Shown: positions 1,983 through 33,071 of the stretch, piece by piece | Numbering within the stretch: the first letter of the stretch is position 1 | Layout of the letters: each line of letters begins with the position of its first letter | NCBI GenBank assembly: GCA_963717145.1 | Contig: OY970325.1 | Location: 4,096,001-4,160,000 of the forward strand | Length of the DNA: 64,000 bases | Origin: an uncultured Armatimonadetes bacterium | GTDB lineage: Bacteria; Armatimonadota; UBA5829; DTJY01 | Reading direction: 5' to 3' | Notes under the pieces: model-generated | The model's input: only the letters and a program-made list of their open reading frames with translations | Told to the model about the DNA's origin: nothing | Database searches by the model: none | Position numbers and translations under genes: made by a program

Positions 1983-2025
1983 GCCATCAGTATAGGATGT
2001 GGTCGGGACGAGGTCAAGCGGAACC

Positions 2026-2102
2026 TTCGGAGTGCGGTGGCTTGACACCGCCTTGACGGTTTGACGTGGCCCTAGAGCGGTGTCAAGCCACCGCACTCCG
2101 AA
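2026..2102. repeat. REP-like palindrome (GGAGTGCGG family) overlapping the 3' end of 2072..3610
   Basis: ttcggagtgcggtggcttgacaccgc ... gcggtgtcaagccaccgcactccgaa; a related hairpin lies at about 22968-23009. Confidence 0.85.
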
Positions 2103-3610
2103 GCGAGAAAGTCCGAGTCGAGGGTGTAGACGCCTGTGACGGAGACGATGCTGTCGAGCTGTACCGCGCCGGCCCAGCGGACGGGGACGCCGGTCTCACC
2201 ATCCGAGAGCCGGAAGCCGCCTGGGAGGATCTCGGTCACACGGCCCCACGTCTTCGTCCGGAGGCCGATCATCCTGTTCACTCTCGTGAGCGTCGAGCCG
2301 AGCGGCTCAGGGATGTGCCTCCCCGCGGCATGGAGTGTGCTTGCTGAGGCCGAAAGGATCTTCGCGCCGCCTGGATTCGTGCTCACAGTACCGGTCACGC
2401 TCGCCAGGAGATCGCCGACGTTGTATCCGTTCAGCCCCTGGACCGCGATCGCCGCCGAGCGGTCGGGCGATTGCAGATAGGTCGTGACGCCGTCGCTGCA
2501 GCTAACGACCAGCCGGTTGATCCTGGCCGCGGTTCCATCCGGCAGGAGCTTCGCGATCCCGATCCGATTGAGGTTGTACGGCGAATCGAGCGGATAGCAT
2601 CCGACCCCGGCGCACGGCGAATCGAACCGCAGCCGGAACTCATCGCGGTCGGGCATAAGGAAACGCGGATCGGCGGAGAAGTTGCCCCAGGCCGGCGCCG
2701 CCGGTTTGATCATTCCACCGAGATCGCCGCCCACGTTCCCATACAGGTCGCAGTGGCTGTATGTCAGTGCGGAGGACGTACTCCCGCCGAAGAGACCTCC
2801 TCCGACCGGCGCGGAGTTGAACGCTATGATGCAGTAGTTCAGGATCATCGGCGAGCCGTAGTAGTCATAGCCGCCGCCGCCACTGACCTCGGCGCTGTTG
2901 TAGGCGATCGTGCAGTTCTCGAAATCAGGGCCGGCATGATAGGGTCCGAATACGCCGCCGCCGCTCCCTGTGGCATGATTGCGGACGATGAGGCAGTTTC
3001 GAACGACGGGATAGGAGTGGTACTCGACGTATATGCCCCCGCCGCTCACGGCCTTGTTGTGGATCATCTCGCAGTTGATGATGTCGCCGTAGGAGTACTT
3101 GCCCATGTAGATTCCGCCGCCCCGATTGGTCGCGCGGCAGTTCTCGAACCGGCAGTTGATGATGGTCGCGGTGGTCGTGATCTGGCAGCGAATGCCCCCG
3201 CCGTCGTCCGCCTTGCCGTTCCTGATGGTGATACCTTCGATGGTCACGGAGACTTGTGTTGGGACGTCGATACCTCGTCCCGCACCGCCCGGATCGATGA
3301 TCGTCGGGAACGCCCCGCCCAGACGCTGGCTCAGCGAGGTCTCGTAGCCGAGGAACCCGCCGTACAGCTTGCTGTACTGGGTCATGGTGACCGATTCCCG
3401 GTAGGTCCCGGCTGCGATCCAGTAATCCGAGCCGGTGCCTGTCGCGCTGATGGCCTGCCCGATTCCTGTGTACGCGGTCGCCCACGAGGTCCCATTATGT
3501 ATGGGACCAGGCGCATCGGCATCGACGTAGACGACCGTCGCCCCATGAGCGGCTGAGATGCCCAACAGGCAGAGGAGAAGTGCTATGGTTATCCGTTTGG
3601 ACATGGACAT
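2072..3610 (-). CDS. Secreted right-handed parallel beta-helix protein with a C-terminal beta-rich (OB-like) region
   Basis: Signal peptide; YVDADA..GTSWATAY start; repeated N.A..GGGI motifs. Confidence 0.8.
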   Translation of the reverse strand: MSMSKRITIALLLCLLGISAAHGATVVYVDADAPGPIHNGTSWATAYTGIGQAISATGTGSDYWIAAGTYRESVTMTQYSKLYGGFLGYETSLSQRLGGAFPTIIDPGGAGRGIDVPTQVSVTIEGITIRNGKADDGGGIRCQITTTATIINCRFENCRATNRGGGIYMGKYSYGDIINCEMIHNKAVSGGGIYVEYHSYPVVRNCLIVRNHATGSGGGVFGPYHAGPDFENCTIAYNSAEVSGGGGYDYYGSPMILNYCIIAFNSAPVGGGLFGGSTSSALTYSHCDLYGNVGGDLGGMIKPAAPAWGNFSADPRFLMPDRDEFRLRFDSPCAGVGCYPLDSPYNLNRIGIAKLLPDGTAARINRLVVSCSDGVTTYLQSPDRSAAIAVQGLNGYNVGDLLASVTGTVSTNPGGAKILSASASTLHAAGRHIPEPLGSTLTRVNRMIGLRTKTWGRVTEILPGGFRLSDGETGVPVRWAGAVQLDSIVSVTGVYTLDSDFLASECGGLTPL

Positions 3611-3709
3611 GCTTTCTAAGCAAGCGGTTGACGTGTTTCCGCCAACATAGTATATCCAAAATTGCGAATATCTAACCATCGGGGGCCGGGAATGGGATGT
3701 CAGCCGATC

Positions 3710-4291
3710 CTATTGCTGCTTGCCCTCAATGGAGGCAAGGAGAATCGCGGCGGCCAAGCCCATGCGTCGGTCGAGTGTCTTGTTCCAGTCCGGCGAGAAG
3801 TCCAGGCCGATCTTCGTGACGAACGGGTTGAAGTGGTGCTTGAACTTGAAGACCTCGGTGCCGCCGACGGTCCCATGGAACGACTGGGGAATGAGATTGG
3901 TGGCGAACCGCCTGAGGAGTGCGAGCGCCCAGCTATCCTCCTCGATGATGCCGATCTCGTTGTCCTCGACATCCATGATGACCCACTCGTCCTTCAACAG
4001 CGACTTCACGCCTCTCCGCTTCAACGCGCCGATCTTTTGGTCCGAGGCGGAATCGATGACGTCGTAGGCCGACGAGAAGTCGATGATGTTCCTGGCCTTG
4101 ATGCGGAACAGCTCGGACGACTTGCTCTCGTCGGGATGGATGGTGATGTCTTCCTTCAGCTTGAAGGCCTTCATGCTCGCGAAAAGCGCCAGGCTGCCCG
4201 TGGAATCGTATATCCGGAACGATCCGCCGAATAACTTGAGGACCTGTTTGCGCAGTAGATAAGTGGAATGCTCGAACGGATTTGTGCCCAA
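3710..4291 (-). CDS. LURP-one/scramblase-like (tubby C-terminal fold) protein
   Basis: LLRKQVLKLFGGSFRIYD...AFKLKEDI...IKARNIIDFS pattern; RBS GGAGG. Confidence 0.7.
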   Translation of the reverse strand: MGTNPFEHSTYLLRKQVLKLFGGSFRIYDSTGSLALFASMKAFKLKEDITIHPDESKSSELFRIKARNIIDFSSAYDVIDSASDQKIGALKRRGVKSLLKDEWVIMDVEDNEIGIIEEDSWALALLRRFATNLIPQSFHGTVGGTEVFKFKHHFNPFVTKIGLDFSPDWNKTLDRRMGLAAAILLASIEGKQQ

Positions 4292-4357
4292 AGTCTACCT
4301 CCTCCAAAGGCTGGTTCATGCTAGTTCTTCCACTTTCACCTCGGATATCCTGCATAT

Positions 4358-4390
4358 GAAAAGGCGGTGGCTCTGATCGAACCACCGCCG
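4358..4390 (-). terminator. Intrinsic terminator after the PEP-CTERM gene
   Basis: ggcggtgg..ccaccgcc stem followed by a U-tract on the minus strand. Confidence 0.65.
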
Positions 4391-4425
4391 ATATCTGGGT
4401 CTTTTGTGTTTGAACGAACGGCTTG

Positions 4426-5082
4426 CTAGCCGTTTCTACGTCTCAGCACGAATCCCGCGAGTCCGGTGATGCCGGACACCAGGGCGAGCAAGCTGCTCGG
4501 CTCGGGGACGACTTCGATGTAGGAAGTCGAGCCGGCCGGGCCTTCGACCGCTCCAACGTTTCCACCGTTCATGTTCCATACTACGTTGAAGATCAGGCCG
4601 ACGTTATTCCAGCCTGCATCGATGCCGGACTGGAGATATGAAGTCACGTCGTGTCTCTGCCAGCCTTCGCCGACGCCATTGAGAAAGGCTATCTCGGATC
4701 CGCCGGCTTGGCTGAATCCTGCTGCTACCGCCGAGCCGGGATCTCCGCCATAGAACTGGAGCGAGGTCCCGTTGATCCCGTAGGAATAGAAGTTGAAAGA
4801 AGCGCTGTTCGGACTTAGTGTCTTGCCTGCCAGGGAGGAGATGTTGACGATCACCATTCCTCTCCCTGATTCTCTGTTCTCGCCGTTATGCCAGAACGAG
4901 ACGTTGGTACCGCCGGTGTCCGCCCAGGAGCCATACCACCCGTACCAACTGCGGCCGGCATACCCGTCACCCTCGCCGGTTGGATAGAGCCTCAGCGGCA
5001 CCGGGCTGGCGAATGCCGAGGTGGCGCAGAGCACAAGAGCCATTGCGATCAGGATGATAGCAAACTTCCGAGTTTTCTTCAT
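4426..5082 (-). CDS. PEP-CTERM sorting-domain protein
   Basis: Signal peptide from ATG 5082; C-terminal VPEPSSLLAL...LRRR. Confidence 0.92.
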   Translation of the reverse strand: MKKTRKFAIILIAMALVLCATSAFASPVPLRLYPTGEGDGYAGRSWYGWYGSWADTGGTNVSFWHNGENRESGRGMVIVNISSLAGKTLSPNSASFNFYSYGINGTSLQFYGGDPGSAVAAGFSQAGGSEIAFLNGVGEGWQRHDVTSYLQSGIDAGWNNVGLIFNVVWNMNGGNVGAVEGPAGSTSYIEVVPEPSSLLALVSGITGLAGFVLRRRNG

Positions 5083-14227: not shown

Positions 14228-14350
14228 GAGAATGGCCTGGTTCCCGAACTGTCACCGTGAGGTGCGCGTGTCCGCCGTTGGCGGAATAGGGGCCGGGCCG
14301 AACCTTTCCGGGGGGCCGGCTTCAGGCATGAGGCCGGCCTTATTCATTTT
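14228..14350 (+). ncRNA. Candidate stand-alone structured RNA (three-way junction plus terminator)
   Basis: Extended -10 TGGTACAAT (14213-14221); stem 14234-14244/14289-14299 enclosing hairpins 14253-14264 and 14271-14285; terminator 14314-14350. Confidence 0.5.
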
Positions 14351-27197: not shown

Positions 27198-28178
27198 ATG
27201 ACACGCATACGCCCGCGACGGCTGCGGGTCTCCGAGGCCATGAGGCGCATGGTCTGCGAGACCGAGCTGTCCGTCAACGATTTGATCTACCCGATGTTCG
27301 TCATGCCCGGCGAAGGATCCCGTGTGGAGATCCCATCGATGCCGGGGTGCTTTCGCATGTCGGTCGACGAGCTGTGCAAGGAAGCCGCCGAGGTCCAGGC
27401 GCTCGGCATCCCGGGGATATTGCTATTCGGGCTGCCGGAGTCGAAAGACGAGATCGGCTCGGGCGCATATGACCCCGAGGGGATCGTCCAGCAGGCGGTC
27501 CGTGCGATCAAGTCGTCCGTGAAAGACCTGCTCGTCATCACCGACGTGTGCATGTGCGAATACACGTCCCACGGCCACTGCGGGATCATCTCCGGCGAGA
27601 AGGTCCTGAACGACCGCACGGTCATGCTGCTCGCGAAGACCGCCCTCTCCCATGCGCAGGCGGGCGCGGATATCGTCGCCCCGTCCGACATGATGGACCT
27701 CCGCATCGGGGCGATCCGGGATGCGCTCGATGAGCATGGCTTCGAGGACACGGCGATCATGGCATACTCGGCGAAGTATTCGTCTGCGTTCTACGGCCCG
27801 TTCCGCGAGGCGGCGGAGTGCGCGCCTCAGTTCGGCGACCGGAAGGCATACCAGATGGACCCGGCGAATTCGCGCGAGGCCCTCAAGGAGGTCGCGCTCG
27901 ACATCGAGGAGGGCGCTGACATCGTGATGGTGAAGCCGGCGCTCGCGTACATGGACATCATCCGCCAGGTGAAGGACTCGACCGACATCCCCGTGGCGGC
28001 GTTCAACGTCTCTGGCGAGTACTCGATGGTGAAGGCGGCGGCGCAGAACGGCTGGATCGACGAACAGAAGGTCGTCTCGGAGATACTGACATCCCTCAAG
28101 CGCGCGGGCGCGGACATCATCCTGACCTACCACGCGATGGATGTGGCGGAGGGGATGGGGCGAATGGTTGATGGTTGA
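27198..28178 (+). CDS. hemB: Porphobilinogen synthase
   Basis: [36 protein letters not shown]. Confidence 0.97.
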
Positions 28179-28232
28179 TGGGGAATGGCTGATGGGGGAA
28201 CGGTTCATGGTTGATGGCTGACGGGGACCGGA

Positions 28233-28341
28233 ACCCGCTAGTCCTGAGTGCGCCTCTGGGCGTGTATCGAAGGACGGCCTACGGAGTGCCACAAGGCCGT
28301 CCTTCGATACACGCCCAGAGGCGCACTCAGGACTAGCGGGT
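28233..28341. repeat. Long palindrome (CTAGTCCTGAGT family); short copy at 58146-58189
   Basis: acccgctagtcctgagtgcgcctctgggcgtgtatcgaagga ... exact inverse. Confidence 0.85.
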
Positions 28342-28376
28342 CCTGTTGTGCAGGGCTCAACCCACGAAGTTCCCAC

Positions 28377-28417
28377 AAAGAAAGAAGGCCGGCGATCACT
28401 CGATCGCCGGCCTTTCG
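28377..28417. terminator. Bidirectional intrinsic terminator
   Basis: aaggccggcgatc-actc-gatcgccggcctt; longer U-tract on the minus strand. Confidence 0.8.
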
Positions 28418-28745
28418 GCTAGGTACGAAGTTGGCTCAATGAAAGCATCTCGCGGTTGTCTCGCCGCTGACGAATGCTAACCCCAGACAGTCCACCGCCA
28501 GCGCCCGCAAGGCCTGGGGAACTGCGCACCGATCGGTCTGGTAAGCGCATGATCCGCCGAATCTCTCTGTGGCGGATCAGCGTGGGCAAGGGAGTCGCCC
28601 GTCGCCGATCTTCCGGCATATGTTCCAATCGCTGGTCGCGGTGAAATCAATGAGAAGGGATACAGAAGCGGTACGCTGGTCAAAGAGGATCTAAGGCACA
28701 GCCACGCATCTCTTTCTCCTACTTCGACGGTCTGGCGCCGTCTTC
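28377..28745 (-). ncRNA. Candidate ~365-nt structured RNA with a 9-codon 5' ORF (28680-28709, MRGCALDPL)
   Basis: Own promoter and terminator; no credible long ORF; many hairpins with minus-strand G-U pairs; 5' CGAAGT pairs with 3' ACTTCG. Confidence 0.55.
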
Positions 28746-28751
28746 TATAAC

Positions 28752-28780
28752 AATATAATGCGGATACCGAATTCCGTCAA
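28752..28780 (-). promoter_or_regulatory. Sigma70-type promoter driving the 28377-28745 transcript
   Basis: TTGACG-N17-TATATT on the minus strand. Confidence 0.65.
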
Positions 28781-28933
28781 CCGGCAAAAATACCTGTTTT
28801 GCGAAAAAGATGCGGGACGCGTCGGAAGATGTCCCCCTTACGAAGGGGGACCGGCCTCTGGGCCGAGGGGGTATGTCTGCATGCAAACCTCCCCCGGCCT
28901 GCTGGCCGGCCCCTCCTTCGTAAGGAGGGGCGC

Positions 28934-29737
28934 TTACAGGATCGGGGTCTGCGAAGGGATTCTGTCGCGGAAGAGAGTGATCGCCTCAAAGCCCGCCGAC
29001 CGGATCACGTCCAGTCCCCGCTCCAGACCGAAGCCCAGGTGCTCCCCGAGATGCGCGTCTGAGCCGATGGTGAGCAACTCCCCGCCGAACTCGCGGTACA
29101 GCTTGAGGGTCTCCAGCGCGGGGAACGGCTCCCCGCACGGCTGACGATATCCCGAGGTGTTCACCTCCAGCGCGATTCCCCGCTCGATCATCGTCCGCAG
29201 GATTGCCTCGATCTGCTCGCGGTACGGCTCGATGCTGAACGGGCCGAGGTACTTCACCCCGAATCGCTTGACGAGGTCGAAGTGCGCCAGGACGTCGAAG
29301 TTGGCGCACTCGGCCGCCTGCAGGACCTCATCGAAGTACCTGCGATAGAGGGCGACCCAATCGGTCGTACCGGTCTGAAAGTCGACCGAGACGACCGCAT
29401 CGCCGACCCAGTGGATGCCGGCGGTGAGGAAATCGAACTTCTCGTCGCCGAGGACCCGCTCGATCTCGCGGGGATAGAGGTGCGGCTCACCGAGTTCCGC
29501 GCCCTTGAGAATGCGGAGACGGTCGCCGAAATGCTCCCGGCAGTCATCGACATCGCGGGCGAAGTCGGCCGCATCGAAGAGGCCATAGCACTGGTCGTCC
29601 GGATTGCTGTCGAGGTGGTCGGTGAACGCGATCTCAGTCAGGCCGCGCTCGATGGCGAGGCGGCACATCTCCTCGACGGAGACGTGTCCGTCGCCGGAAT
29701 GGGTCGAATGAACGTGGTAGTCGATCAGGTGTGTCAC
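28934..29737 (-). CDS. PHP-domain histidinol-phosphate phosphatase (HisK/HisJ family)
   Basis: DYHVHSTHS, FTDH, LAHFD, IGSDAH. Confidence 0.88.
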   Translation of the reverse strand: MTHLIDYHVHSTHSGDGHVSVEEMCRLAIERGLTEIAFTDHLDSNPDDQCYGLFDAADFARDVDDCREHFGDRLRILKGAELGEPHLYPREIERVLGDEKFDFLTAGIHWVGDAVVSVDFQTGTTDWVALYRRYFDEVLQAAECANFDVLAHFDLVKRFGVKYLGPFSIEPYREQIEAILRTMIERGIALEVNTSGYRQPCGEPFPALETLKLYREFGGELLTIGSDAHLGEHLGFGLERGLDVIRSAGFEAITLFRDRIPSQTPIL

Positions 29738-29778
29738 CCCCTAATGTTATCCGGCCCGGGCATACTCTCCTTGGGCAC

Positions 29779-29848
29779 AAGAAAAATGGCCCGCAGGGTG
29801 TTCGCCTGCGAGCCAAGTAAGTAAGGAGAAAAAGATGTCTTTTTCAAC
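29779..29848 (-). ncRNA. Sigma54-dependent sRNA candidate B
   Basis: Starts about 12 nt after the -12 box; seed ACATCTTTTTCTCCTTACTTAC, then terminator TGGCTCGCAGG..CCTGCGGGCCA-TTTTT. Confidence 0.7.
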
Positions 29849-29858
29849 TGGGGATATC

Positions 29859-29874
29859 TGCAAGAATCGTGCCA
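29859..29874 (-). promoter_or_regulatory. Sigma54 promoter
   Basis: TGGCACGATTCTTGCA, consensus -24/-12. Confidence 0.85.
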
Positions 29875-29975
29875 ATCCCGGCAATAATGCCTGCCATGTA
29901 GCATATTTCACGAACTTATCACATTCAGCACATGCGGCGTTCACGAACAAACGCCTATCAGGCGGTTTGGAGGGC

Positions 29976-30044
29976 AAAAAAAGAGAAGCCTGCGAGATTT
30001 TCCCGCAGGCTCGTAAGGAAGGAGAAATAGATGTTGTTTCCAGG
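29976..30044 (-). ncRNA. Sigma54-dependent sRNA candidate A
   Basis: Seed ACATCTATTTCTCCTTCCTTAC, then terminator AGCCTGCGGGA-AAA-TCTCGCAGGCT and U-tract. Confidence 0.7.
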
Positions 30045-30054
30045 TAGTATTACC

Positions 30055-30070
30055 TGCAAGAATCGTGCCA
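30055..30070 (-). promoter_or_regulatory. Sigma54 promoter
   Basis: TGGCACGATTCTTGCA, identical to 29859-29874. Confidence 0.85.
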
Positions 30071-30163
30071 ATTCGTGCAACAAGTCGGGGAAAGGTCAAA
30101 AAGAGTTGGAGGCAGGGGGCAATCATTGAGGCACACGTGATCGATGATGCGTTGGCAGTGCAC

Positions 30164-31036
30164 TCAAGAATCCGAGGTTCCGGCAACTGCAGAGCTCGTC
30201 ATAGTACCGGTTGATATGACGTATGGCTGGTATACATGCGTCGTCCCATCTAGAGCCAGAAAGCATCCTCTGCTGCAGACAAGAAGCGCTCGAGTGTGGA
30301 AGTATATACATCCACTTTCTGCGAAATTCTCGGCGGTCAGATATCGATTGTGCATCACTCTGTTTCGGAGAGTCCGAAGTTCGTTCAGTTTGTAATAAGC
30401 GCCCTTTCGAATAAAGACATTCCGGAACACATCTGCCCAGCAAGTCGCCTCATCTATGATCTTGGGCAAGTCTGAGAAGTCAGCGTAGAATATGTCGTGC
30501 ATCCTCTCAAAATCATGTTCAAGATCGTTCTCCTCATCAGACTTCCGATTGCCACACCTGCGCTGGATGGCAAGTAGATCTGGCTCAGCGCTGACCGTCC
30601 ACCAGTCCATGCCGTAGCATCTTGCCATAGATGCGGCGATGCGACGCCGAAGTTTGTTCTCCAGATCATGCAGGTCTGCATATGTCTTGATGGTCCGTTG
30701 GCGGCCTATCCCATCGTAGCTCAACATCCACCATGTGAAATAGGCAGACGCGGCGTATTCAATGCGAGTCTTGGCCTCTTGCATCTCCGTCTCTCCAGCT
30801 TCCTCGCCACCCTCCAGCATGATCTGGAACACGTTTGGCGATCCTCCGCTCCATCTAATCCTAACGAACACACCTTGTGCCAACCCGGATACCTCGCTCT
30901 GAGCTTGGAGGCCTGGCTGTAACTCGAAGTCTGTCAGTTCCATTAGCTCCACCATATCGGTACTGGCCTGAGCATCTGGTGAGTTATTGAGAGCGAGGTA
31001 CTCCACTTGGTTACTTGCGAGAGCAGGTGTGGTCAT
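30164..31036 (-). CDS. Protein with a C-terminal Swt1-like HEPN domain
   Basis: LENKLRRRI...G.DWW...YADFSDL..II...W..VF...LRNRVMH (Rx4H). Confidence 0.7.
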   Translation of the reverse strand: MTTPALASNQVEYLALNNSPDAQASTDMVELMELTDFELQPGLQAQSEVSGLAQGVFVRIRWSGGSPNVFQIMLEGGEEAGETEMQEAKTRIEYAASAYFTWWMLSYDGIGRQRTIKTYADLHDLENKLRRRIAASMARCYGMDWWTVSAEPDLLAIQRRCGNRKSDEENDLEHDFERMHDIFYADFSDLPKIIDEATCWADVFRNVFIRKGAYYKLNELRTLRNRVMHNRYLTAENFAESGCIYFHTRALLVCSRGCFLALDGTTHVYQPYVISTGTMTSSAVAGTSDS

Positions 31037-32962
31037 CTATCCGTCCTCCAGCACGACATCCTCAACGAGCGCCTGTATCTGACAACAAGTGTCCTGCGCT
31101 TGCTGCTCCAGTTCCCGCACGTGGTTCCGCAGATCCGCTATGCGCTGCACTAATCCCGATTGAGTTCCTAGAGGTGGAATGGGGACGCGTATCGACCGCA
31201 GACTGCTGTAGTCCAGTGCTGGCCTCGTAGAGCCCGTTGCAATCCGTTCCATCTGGGTACGGCAGAGGGCGCTGTTGAGTGCGGCTTCCAAGTATCCTGG
31301 CAGTGCCTGGTCAGGCCTGACTCTGAGTCGAACAATGTGCTGGTTGATATTTGCTTCCCGGAGTTCGGGAGGTACCACGGCCGCGGTGCCTATCCGGCCC
31401 GTAATCGTAAGAAGGACGTCGCCAGGGGTTAGCATCGATCGCGCCAAAGTGCCCGTATGAGTTCGCCTATCAATATATAACACATCAGCTAGATCGATCA
31501 TGCCTTCCTGTATGTTCTGAATGCGTAGGAGAGGCACACCTGCCTCAGCGTTCACATACGCCTCTCCCTTTGCTGCGGGAGTTGCACCCCCTGATATGCT
31601 CTCTACAATCTCGCCAAGCGTACGCACCGGGTACTTGCTTTGGCCCAGTCTAACGTCTATGGAGATGCTGAAAGATGGCTTATGGAAAAATGGATCCATC
31701 CGCAGCGTAAGTCTGCCTTCGTCTGCCATATAGCAAATAGGTTCAGCTTCATTAGATGCGGGTAGCCCTTGCGCGGAAGCAGAGAATAGAGTGGCCACCA
31801 CAGGAAGGGAATCCTCGTCCACTCTTCCGGTCGCGTCGTAGCCCACATGGGAAGGCAAGGCCATGAATGTCATCCCCATGCTATCATCATGCGGCTGTCT
31901 ACGTTGTAGTACCACCAAGCTGGCCTTTACACCTATGCCTGCTGGGGCAAAAGTGTGGGAAGGTAGTGAGATGACTGCCAGGACATGGCACCTGTCTTGT
32001 ATGAACTGTCTCACATACTGCAGTGAAACTGTTGTCAATACAGAGTCGGGCAACACCAAGGCAAGCCGACCAGGTCTGCCGCCGGCCTTAAGAAGCTCGA
32101 TACATCGCTCCAAGAACAGGAGTTCGCTCTTCTGAGCACGTCGGATGGATCCCCTGGACCCCAGATCGAATTGCTCGAGTGTTTCCGGCTCAGAGACGAT
32201 ACCCCCAAATGGGGGATTTGTGGCAACTACGTCGCATGAAGCGGGTGTCAGCCGCGACACGGCGGTGAGGGTCGGCCAAGCGGATAGGGCATTTGCGCAA
32301 AAAACGTTGGAGTGCCCGTCTCCATGTAGCACCATGGTTACCATCGCCAAGTGCGCCAATCGCTCGTTTAGCTCGACTCCCACCAGGTGCTGGGAAGCAT
32401 ACTGAGCTACATTCAGATCTGGGTTGCGCTGGGATACGTAATTCAAGCCGTAGAGAAGGAAACCGCCACTGCCACACGCAGGGTCCGCGAGGACATCATC
32501 GGGTCCAGGGTTCAATATCGTGATGGCCAGTTGAACTATTGGCCTTGGCGTAAGGTACTGACCGAGCTCAGCCTTAAAAACATCTCCAAGGAAGGCTTCA
32601 AAAGCTCTTCCGGGCGAGTCCAAATCCGATTCCACCAAAGACAAGTCCTGGAGTTGTTCGACTACGTTAGATACGATCTGCTCGGATACTGCCAGAGGTT
32701 TGTTGAACACTCCAGGATATGCATTGCAGGCTTGGTCATACACCTCCAGGACTCGAACGGCTGTGTCGTGAGCCGTCTCGCCGTTTTGCCTCCTGAACTC
32801 CCCTTTCCCCTGCACCTCATCGTATACCTTGGCAAAAAGCAATTTGGAGAACTCATCAAACGCTGTGACAGGATCACGCCGTCCACTCTCCCAGAGCATC
32901 TTGTGTGAGTTCGCGAATCGCTCCTTGAGTTGTGCCAGTGCAACCTTGTGCGGTCGGTTCAT
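31037..32962 (-). CDS. N6-adenine DNA methyltransferase fused to one target-recognition (HsdS-like) domain
   Basis: GQYLTPR, DPACGSGGFL, NPPFG; C-terminal GGATP...GDVL....GRIG...NQHI...IPPL..Q; start uncertain. Confidence 0.9.
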   Translation of the reverse strand: MNRPHKVALAQLKERFANSHKMLWESGRRDPVTAFDEFSKLLFAKVYDEVQGKGEFRRQNGETAHDTAVRVLEVYDQACNAYPGVFNKPLAVSEQIVSNVVEQLQDLSLVESDLDSPGRAFEAFLGDVFKAELGQYLTPRPIVQLAITILNPGPDDVLADPACGSGGFLLYGLNYVSQRNPDLNVAQYASQHLVGVELNERLAHLAMVTMVLHGDGHSNVFCANALSAWPTLTAVSRLTPASCDVVATNPPFGGIVSEPETLEQFDLGSRGSIRRAQKSELLFLERCIELLKAGGRPGRLALVLPDSVLTTVSLQYVRQFIQDRCHVLAVISLPSHTFAPAGIGVKASLVVLQRRQPHDDSMGMTFMALPSHVGYDATGRVDEDSLPVVATLFSASAQGLPASNEAEPICYMADEGRLTLRMDPFFHKPSFSISIDVRLGQSKYPVRTLGEIVESISGGATPAAKGEAYVNAEAGVPLLRIQNIQEGMIDLADVLYIDRRTHTGTLARSMLTPGDVLLTITGRIGTAAVVPPELREANINQHIVRLRVRPDQALPGYLEAALNSALCRTQMERIATGSTRPALDYSSLRSIRVPIPPLGTQSGLVQRIADLRNHVRELEQQAQDTCCQIQALVEDVVLEDG

Positions 32963-33071
32963 CTTGTCCGCTGCGCTTTCTGTGCTAGTCTTGCCATCAT
33001 GAGAACAGAGCCGTTCATCACATGCGTTCGGCAACCATACGCAATCTTCCTTCCGAATCCGTTTTCAAACC

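Follow-up and report, generated by a model that had tools for sequence, protein, structure and literature searches.

A Candidate Stand-Alone Small RNA With Its Own Promoter and Terminator in an Uncultured Armatimonadetes Bacterium

Introduction

Dual-function small RNAs (sRNAs) which carry a short open reading frame (ORF) are represented by RNAIII/hld, SgrS/SgrT, and SR1/SR1P, and the encoded peptide is conserved and functional in these systems. Another type of short ribosome-binding element is found in the 5′ stabilizers of Gram-positive mRNAs, such as the STAB-SD of cryIIIA (SD, Shine-Dalgarno sequence) and the 5′ hairpins of the ermC and aprE leaders, where it is the bound ribosome that matters and not its product. 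Finally, orphan structured non-coding RNAs (ncRNAs) such as the raiA motif RNA, which were discovered by comparative genomics, are widespread, with hundreds of examples and strong covariation. The element described here shares some features with each of these groups. It is a predicted RNA gene on the minus strand of a stretch of 64,000 nucleotides (nt) from the genome of an uncultured Armatimonadetes bacterium (GenBank assembly GCA_963717145.1, contig OY970325.1, positions 4,096,001 to 4,160,000), which is referred to as the window and to which all coordinates without a genome label refer.

An earlier note, prepared from the sequence alone, had described the region 28377-28780 as a structured orphan RNA of about 365 nt with its own promoter and terminator. 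The analysis presented here indicates that the locus is very likely a genuine RNA gene, that is, a functional stand-alone RNA belonging to a family which is so far undescribed. The preferred interpretation, to which a probability of roughly 60% is assigned, is that of a trans-acting regulatory sRNA equipped with a ribosome-binding 5′ stabilizer module. Since no regulatory RNA was found described for the Armatimonadetes in a listing-level search of the literature, this would be a first candidate regulatory RNA for the lineage.

Results

Promoter, Terminator, and Coding Strand

Four distinct sequences were compared, namely those of the window, of the metagenome contig L017, and of G001 and G006, two genomes from other genera of the same family; two of them are close, as L017 is 96% identical to the window. 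The genome of the window is denoted G000, and L018 and L019 are further metagenome contigs. The predicted gene and its control region contain the following elements, listed from 5′ to 3′:

28781-28797, minus strand: imperfect palindrome of 17 bp, ACAGGTATTTTTGCCGG, operator-like, abutting the -35 hexamer and found in the same place in all four orthologous promoters
28780-28752, minus strand: sigma-70-type promoter TTGACG-N17-TATATT, with the -35 hexamer at 28780-28775, a 17-nt spacer, and the -10 hexamer at 28757-28752
28726-28742, minus strand: 5′-terminal hairpin GACGG-CGCCAGA-CCGUC, paired in 100% of the cells, with an A-U pair replaced by G-C in G001
28707-28722, minus strand: SD-like sequence GUAGGAGAAAGAG followed by AUG; AAGGAG and AUG are kept in all four sequences at a spacing of 6-8 nt
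28680-28709, minus strand: 9-codon ORF MRGCALDPL with UGA stop codon, AGGAG lying six bases upstream of the AUG
28640-28663, minus strand: pyrimidine-rich tract GUAUCCCUUCUCAUUGAUUUCACC, recognizable by eye in all four sequences
28523-28620, minus strand: variable middle domain with the hairpins GCCG/CGGC, GGGCGA/UUGCCC, and UGAUCCGCC/GGCGGAUCA, the helix UGCGC/GCGCA, and the palindrome ACCGAUCGGU
28481-28519, minus strand: hairpin P1, CCCCAGGC/GUCUGGGG (CCAGGC/GUCUGG), with an invariant G-U pair; six of eight pairs are invariant in the four sequences
28444-28480, minus strand: UUAGC followed by hairpin P2, whose inner stem (UC-GCGG/CCGC-GA) is 100% paired with one compensatory pair, and whose outer stem is 69% paired
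28415-28443, minus strand: conserved, probably unpaired stretch CUUUCAUUGAGCCAACUUCGUACCUAGCCG with invariant UUGAGCC and CCUAGCCG; consensus YUUGAGCCRAC-N-CCUAGCCG
28414-28385, minus strand (28375-28414 including the U-tract): intrinsic terminator with a 13-bp stem containing nine G-C pairs, a 4-nt loop, and the tail CTTTCTTTGT

The two elements delimiting the unit had already been pointed out in the earlier note, and both were recovered by scans. The promoter is the only site of its kind in the region 27900-29200 (mean of 0.4 in 50 shuffled sequences), and its two hexamers are kept in G001, L017, and G006, while the terminator shows compensatory changes at two pairs among the four sequences. 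As judged from the promoter spacing, transcription would start at about 28745, yielding a predicted RNA of about 368 nt in the window (28745 to about 28378) and of about 275 nt in the short form of G006. The locus thus possesses its own promoter and its own intrinsic terminator, both retained in the homologs, as expected of a stand-alone sRNA.

The minus strand was assigned because of the promoter and the U-tract, the invariant G-U pair in CCCCAGGC/GUCUGGGG, and several C-to-U changes which preserve pairing, as G-U, on this strand only; the latter are found in GCCG/CGGC of G001 and at 28551 and 28526 in the metatranscriptome run X7. The previous suggestion that G-U pairs favor the minus strand is in agreement with both kinds of G-U pairs. 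Fold energy was dropped as a strand criterion, since both strands fold equally well: the values are -147.6 kcal/mol for the minus strand (z = -2.57, not reached by any of 100 shuffled sequences) and -148.3 kcal/mol for the plus strand (z = -2.71).

Conserved Architecture and Base-Pairing

The promoter, the palindrome, the 5′ hairpin, the AAGGAG-AUG element, the 3′ domain, and the terminator have been retained as a unit in two other genera, including invariant blocks of 8-14 bases across genera with only 81-87% identity between their hemB proteins. G006 also has a 5′ hairpin (GGCGG...CCGCC), and P1 is followed by the conserved sequence GGGGUYAGC. The middle domain (about 130 nt) is missing from the G006 homolog, and 73 other letters replace positions 28497-28572 in a contig of the metatranscriptome X16. 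According to RNAalifold, the GUCUGG arm of P1 has an alternative partner, CCAGAC/CCGGAC, located 40-50 nt upstream in the window, L017, and G001, in addition to its P1 partner CCCCAGGC; two candidate partners, UCAGGC and CCAGGC, are also seen by eye in G006, and the data choose neither.

All six hairpins named in the earlier note are present in the sequence, and the alignment shows to what extent each of them is paired in the relatives:

28617-28604, minus strand: GCCG/CGGC, paired in 100% of the cells (three-sequence alignment)
28600-28584, minus strand: GGGCGA/UUGCCC, 56%, a register shared by the window and its close relative alone
28579-28550, minus strand: UGAUCCGCC/GGCGGAUCA, 77%, shortened in L017
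28549-28523, minus strand: helix UGCGC/GCGCA, 93%
28519-28481, minus strand: CCCCAGGC/GUCUGGGG, 100% and invariant (three-sequence alignment)
28478-28444, minus strand: AGCAU/AUGCU, 67%, a register shared by the window and its close relative alone

The place of UGAUCCGCC/GGCGGAUCA is taken in G001 by a GNRA-capped hairpin, GGCAGA-GCGA-UCUGCC. A further proposal, the pairing of the 5′ and 3′ ends, appeared only in the single-sequence fold, where it partly uses the U-tail, and had to be given up as unsupported. In the 3′ domain (four sequences), 93.5% of the cells are paired, compared to 30-49% when the partners are slid, and three pairs are changed on both sides, which is reached by 17 of 500 shuffles. 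The corresponding values for the whole RNA (three sequences) are 87.8% versus 34-44% and five pairs changed on both sides, reached by 1 of 500 shuffles. These counts are biased in favor of the structure over the slid controls, since the sequences are related and the structure had been derived from the window. Covariation is limited, with three to five pairs changing on both sides among only four distinct sequences.

Coding Potential

No ORF of at least 15 amino acids is common between the genera, the long ORFs change frame already between the window and L017, and the alignment gaps are mostly of 1, 2, or 5 nt, i.e., no multiples of three. A conventional protein-coding gene was rejected because of the missing shared ORF and the frame-breaking indels. 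The ORF starting with TTG at 28477-28683, to which the earlier note had drawn attention, does exist, but its frame is lost even in the closest relative. The proposed 9-codon ORF with a good ribosome-binding site was found at 28709-28680. Its counterparts in the four sequences have lengths of 9, 9, 8, and 19 codons and encode unrelated peptides, all of them ending with UGA; the ORF of G006 spans sequence which lies after the stop codon of the window, and even the window and L017 differ by two replacements and one silent change. As far as can be judged from the sequence comparison, the SD-AUG element is conserved whereas the length and sequence of the peptide are not, which does not correspond to a dual-function sRNA.

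Known RNA Families

Rfam 15 was searched over the whole window at the gathering scores and over 28150-29000 permissively, with E values up to 10. No family matched the RNA gene at gathering score. The permissive matches inside the transcript are centered on the terminator and score 15-21 bits, compared to cut-offs of 41-111, and the others are matches of microRNA-precursor models to two flanking palindromes, likewise below threshold. ARAGORN found no tmRNA or tRNA genes in the window. The tmRNA, RNase P, 6S, and signal recognition particle (SRP) RNAs were each located elsewhere in the genome with scores above the Rfam cut-offs, so that a divergent housekeeping RNA was rejected: the tmRNA (RF00023) is encoded at G000:169206-169558 (156.5 bits), RNase P RNA (RF00010) at 3580208-3580619 (271.2 bits), 6S RNA (RF00013) at 3075589-3075774 (78.7 bits), and SRP RNA (RF00169) at 1237014-1237114 (65.5 bits). 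None of the tmRNA, RNase P, 6S, and SRP models matches the RNA gene, and the predicted fold of the latter is multibranched, unlike 6S RNA with its long interrupted helix and central bubble. The earlier remark that the RNA resembles tmRNA or RNase P RNA in size but lacks their hallmarks agrees with these results, the likeness being one of size only (about 350-400 nt).

A dispersed repeat or mobile element was also rejected, as the RNA gene is present as a single copy in G000 and the RNA motif pattern has no matches in viral contigs. The absence of an Rfam match, the single copy, and the retention as a unit in two other genera uphold the view of an orphan stand-alone RNA. The sole Rfam family scoring above its cut-off in the window is the DUF3800-IX RNA (RF02968), found in full length at 14234-14303 on the plus strand (58 bits; cut-off, 36.8).

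Distribution and Genomic Context

A BLAST search over 41 relatives returned matches in two genomes (G000 and G001), the covariance model R1 added G006 when applied to the class (3 of 53 genomes), and a strict motif pattern matched the same number of genomes (3 of 401) in the phylum. Beyond the family, 42 genomes of the class and 348 additional ones of the phylum thus yielded no homolog. The patterns were built on exact motifs from the conserved 3′ stretch; they retrieved one record from a collection of genome contigs, with the same sequence as G001, and three from metagenome contigs, namely L017 (full length), L018 (partial), and L019 (identical to G001). A model based on the four sequences (R2) gave matches at E values up to 1 in 9 of 11 genomes of the family, only three of which are true members. 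Five of the additional loci were inspected (L034, L035, L037, L038, and L039; 13.7-27.3 bits): all lack GUCUGGGGUYAGC, UUGAGCC, and CCUAGCC, and in three cases the score stems mainly from the terminator, while the R2 matches in G004 were judged by coordinates only. The RNA was thus found in a handful of related bacteria from soil, namely in 3 of the 11 genus-level representatives of a single family, and in no other genome searched.

The genes flanking the RNA gene in the window are:

27198-28178, plus strand: hemB (ALAD), convergent with the RNA gene
28934-29737, minus strand: gene for a PHP-domain protein, upstream of and co-directional with the RNA gene

The RNA gene is convergent with hemB in the window, L017, and G001, and the PHP/hemB context is common to the window and G001. 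A convergent gene follows the RNA gene at all four loci and is hemB in three of them; in G006, it is a different gene without Pfam match, hemB lies 6 kb away in the opposite orientation, and the orientation of the RNA is reversed relative to the other loci. No partner gene consistently adjoins the RNA across the loci. The hemB gene itself was found in 8 of the 11 family genomes. Downstream of it, no homolog of the RNA was seen in G004, G005, G009, and G010, where the region is occupied by tRNA genes, a HAD-type gene, or membrane genes. When R1 was applied without filters to six loci, it scored at most 11.3 bits.

Genes for a large terminase, an HTH protein, a GmrSD-N/HNH nuclease, and an EcoRI-type adenine methylase are located on one strand between hemB and the RNA gene of G006 (G006:C4:3400-9100, L043), and this block looks like a prophage remnant or defense island. 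The window contains a region of lower GC content (0.46-0.56) just beyond the PHP gene (29740-33034), which encodes a Swt1-like HEPN protein and a fusion of an N6-methylase with a specificity domain. These two islands suggest that foreign DNA lands in this neighborhood. The RNA itself is not part of it, since G001 contains the RNA without such an island beside the promoter.

Two long and nearly perfect palindromes (28228-28345 and 28830-28930) flank the RNA gene in the window, and GC-rich palindromes of similar appearance adjoin the copies of G006 and L017. The summed depth of the soil DNA run X1 amounts to 2000-4700 over 28820-28942, compared to about 9-20 over the RNA gene, which resembles the pattern of a high-copy repeat. 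Degenerate repeats resembling ATGGTTGATGG at 28150-28225 cross the stop codon of hemB, so that the last residues of the encoded protein are repeat-derived, and the RNA run X17 exhibits a depth spike of 2149 at 28164-28204.

The Operator-Like Palindrome

The palindrome next to the -35 hexamer belongs to a motif class of roughly AAAAC-YGGTA-WWWTT-RCCRG-GT, with the consensus ACTGGTATTATTACCAG, usually preceded by AAAA. A regular expression found 23 sites in G000 (for example, at 121804, 1855884, 3714698, 3987098, and 4180848), none of which lies inside the crude gene calls. A search with the IUPAC motif, in which palindromic sites may count on both strands, gave 22 matches in G000, 11 in G001, 8 in G006, 7 in G004, and none in G008, i.e., the motif was found in three of four other family genomes tested, while the reversed control gave none in any of the five. 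The 20 genes scanned next to motif sites include those for a Fur-family regulator, a Rex-like regulator, a glycosyltransferase, several large secreted or cell-wall proteins, and a transposase of the ISKra4 type (UPF0236). The palindrome looks like a candidate operator of some regulator. A LexA box was rejected, since the form CTG-N10-CAG fits but no repair genes are among the 20 flanking genes scanned; a Fur box or sigma-54 promoter does not agree with the spacing and sequence of the upstream motif compared to the respective consensus; and an element of rRNA promoters was dismissed as well, since the site near the rRNA operon is located at its downstream end. Two further palindrome sites, G000:C1:1442064 and 2570949, are followed by near-consensus promoters (TTGACA/TTGACG ... 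TATACT), and the transcripts starting from them would begin similarly (..GGGTAGATCGC..); they may represent paralogous RNAs or leaders.

Metatranscriptomic Contigs

Four runs were aligned to the region 28000-29200, consisting of the RNA runs X7, X16, and X17 and the DNA run X1; neither the ends nor the strand of a transcript can be read from their contigs, and the RNA libraries may contain DNA. X7 contributes two whole contigs, 28425-28602 (178 nt) and 28577-28735 (159 nt), with six differences each (about 96-97% identity), and has no depth over 28205-28409 or 28738-29200. The hemB pieces listed for X7 are only 86-90% identical and therefore come from other organisms. X16 has one contig, which covers 28416-28496 and 28573-28627, while X17 contains nothing on the RNA gene. 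Neither X7 nor X16 covers the terminator hairpin at 28385-28414, a gap from which nothing is concluded. The DNA run X1 has a contig crossing the 3′ border of the RNA (28320-28689), and the contigs of the RNA runs lie only inside 28416-28735, within the predicted transcript. This weakly hints at an abundant RNA which is made by close relatives and does not extend beyond the predicted unit.

Discussion

Proposed Function

The 3′ domain, consisting of P1, P2, the unpaired stretch UUGAGCC...CCUAGCCG, and the terminator, would represent the working part of the RNA, as suggested by its being the best conserved part and by its retention in the short form of G006. The invariant stretch between P2 and the terminator would pair with target mRNAs, and Hfq may assist in this process; the genome contains an hfq gene (101 bits; cut-off, 27), and the terminator of the RNA has a U-tract. 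Action by base-pairing in trans is put forward as possible, with the odds somewhat against it. The 5′ hairpin, the AAGGAG-AUG element, and a short ORF whose sequence is not fixed would form a ribosome-binding module which protects the RNA and raises its level without giving rise to a functional peptide. This interpretation as a 5′ stabilizer is tentative, at close to but less than even odds. A homolog of RNase J is present in the genome; the match (G000:C1:1455312-1456945) falls into two adjacent pieces of 271.5 and 349.4 bits with a short overlap of a few bases, which may be due to a frameshift, to an error in sequencing, or to splitting of the gene. Transcription would be controlled by a regulator binding to the palindrome fused to the -35 hexamer, a type of site of which the genome contains about twenty.

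Several observations weigh against the reading as a trans-acting sRNA with a ribosome-binding stabilizer. The conserved 31-nt stretch reached a duplex minimum of -34.8 against 3828 crude 5′ regions, while four shuffled versions reached -33.2 to -37.1, the complements of seeds are not enriched, and when the RNA was used as the query of a short-word BLAST search, the genome yielded no match below E = 0.38 and no extended complementarity. With 368 nt, the RNA is also large for a base-pairing sRNA. The conserved SD-AUG element would equally be expected of a gene for a genuinely translated peptide, and no conserved internal partner was found which sequesters the SD sequence, the best partners differing between the sequences (the region of G006 was mis-assigned in this comparison). 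Covariation is thin, coming from four distinct sequences, two of them close, and from a structure taken from the window; two of the three double changes in the 3′ domain fall in the terminator, and P1, which never varies, gives nothing for or against pairing. Finally, the data on transcription amount to a hint, given the possible carry-over of DNA into the RNA libraries and contigs without ends or strand.

Alternative Explanations

Because no target signal was found, a mode of action by protein binding stays a serious rival, even if it appears unlikely. The RNA would then be a sequestering RNA, a scaffold of a ribonucleoprotein, or a ribozyme, and P1, GGGGUYAGC, UUGAGCC, and CCUAGCCG would provide contacts to proteins or tertiary contacts. 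The conservation of P1 and the three motifs in sequence, beyond what pairing demands, would be explained in this way, and CsrB, 6S, and RNase P RNAs are of comparable size. However, an intricate global fold is difficult to reconcile with a middle part of about 130 nt which is dispensable in G006, 6S RNA is already encoded elsewhere in the genome, and no gene for a partner is consistently adjacent. CsrA-binding RNAs carry GGA motifs; about five of these were counted by reading in the RNA of the window, which is about the number expected from its composition. Quite improbable is a small mRNA whose product is the short ORF, the remainder of the transcript serving as a long structured 3′ untranslated region. 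The AAGGAG at ideal distance to the AUG and the UGA stop codons in all four sequences would be in line with it, as would the fact that the one difference of X7 inside the ORF (28686) is synonymous, but the four peptides (9, 9, 8, and 19 codons) are unrelated, G006 would read sequence which is untranslated in the others, two of three changes between L017 and the window within nine codons are replacements, and the most conserved parts of the RNA are outside the ORF. As a combination of translation and regulation, a translation-coupled riboregulator was also considered, in which a ribosome on the SD-AUG mini-ORF, whose length and not its sequence would matter, picks CCAGAC or CCCCAGGC as partner of GUCUGG and thereby exposes or hides UUGAGCC/CCUAGCCG. 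This is rated as very improbable; if true, the trans activity of the RNA would report the translational state of the cell.

The same switch of partners could also act in cis, with translation of the short ORF or a ligand deciding between CCAGAC and CCCCAGGC, and read-through of the terminator producing an antisense transcript to the convergent gene. Two partners of GUCUGG do exist in the window, L017, and G001, and by eye also in G006, and the downstream gene is convergent at all four loci and is hemB in the window, L017, and G001. Such a leader or switch is nevertheless rated slightly lower still, since no gene follows downstream on the same strand, as would be required for a riboswitch or attenuator, the terminator is very strong (13 bp, nine of them G-C), the convergent neighbor in G006 is another gene without Pfam match, with hemB 6 kb off and in the other orientation, and no riboswitch family was matched. 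The least probable explanation, hardly to be expected, is a decaying gene for a small protein or functionless intergenic DNA in which promoter and terminator survive by chance. The length from start to terminator would fit an ORF of about 110 amino acids and the middle part is variable, but the invariant blocks of 8-14 bases between genera with the mentioned divergence of their hemB proteins, the compensatory changes in the stems, the hints of expression, and the lack of any shared reading frame all argue against decay.

Significance and Comparison With Known Systems

The proposed regulatory sRNA would be directly testable in a cultured member of the lineage, since the positions of its promoter and terminator, of the regulator site, of the 5′ module, and of the core domain have been mapped. 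Through the palindrome at the -35 hexamer, it is linked to a regulon which comprises about twenty promoters and is shared within the family, and finding the corresponding regulator would show when the RNA is made. Its narrow range limits its wider weight, placing it as one more lineage-specific sRNA.

A view on the systems mentioned at the outset shows how far the likeness extends in each case. The dual-function sRNAs differ from the RNA described here in that the peptide is not conserved in the latter, and there is no relation by sequence or Rfam family, but they have in common with it their own promoter and terminator, a good ribosome-binding site in front of a short ORF close to the 5′ end, a non-coding part which is structured, and a total length of several hundred nt. 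The 5′ stabilizers of Gram-positive mRNAs appear to be similar in the combination of a 5′-terminal hairpin with a strong SD sequence near the 5′ end, in a genome encoding a homolog of RNase J; unlike there, an AUG with a short ORF comes after the SD sequence, and it would be a non-coding RNA instead of an mRNA that is protected. Orphan structured ncRNAs are far more widespread and better supported by covariation than the present RNA, which shows thin covariation and was detected in 3 of the 401 phylum genomes, but the RNA resembles them in being intergenic and self-contained, with a promoter and a terminator, conserved stems, and invariant unpaired motifs.

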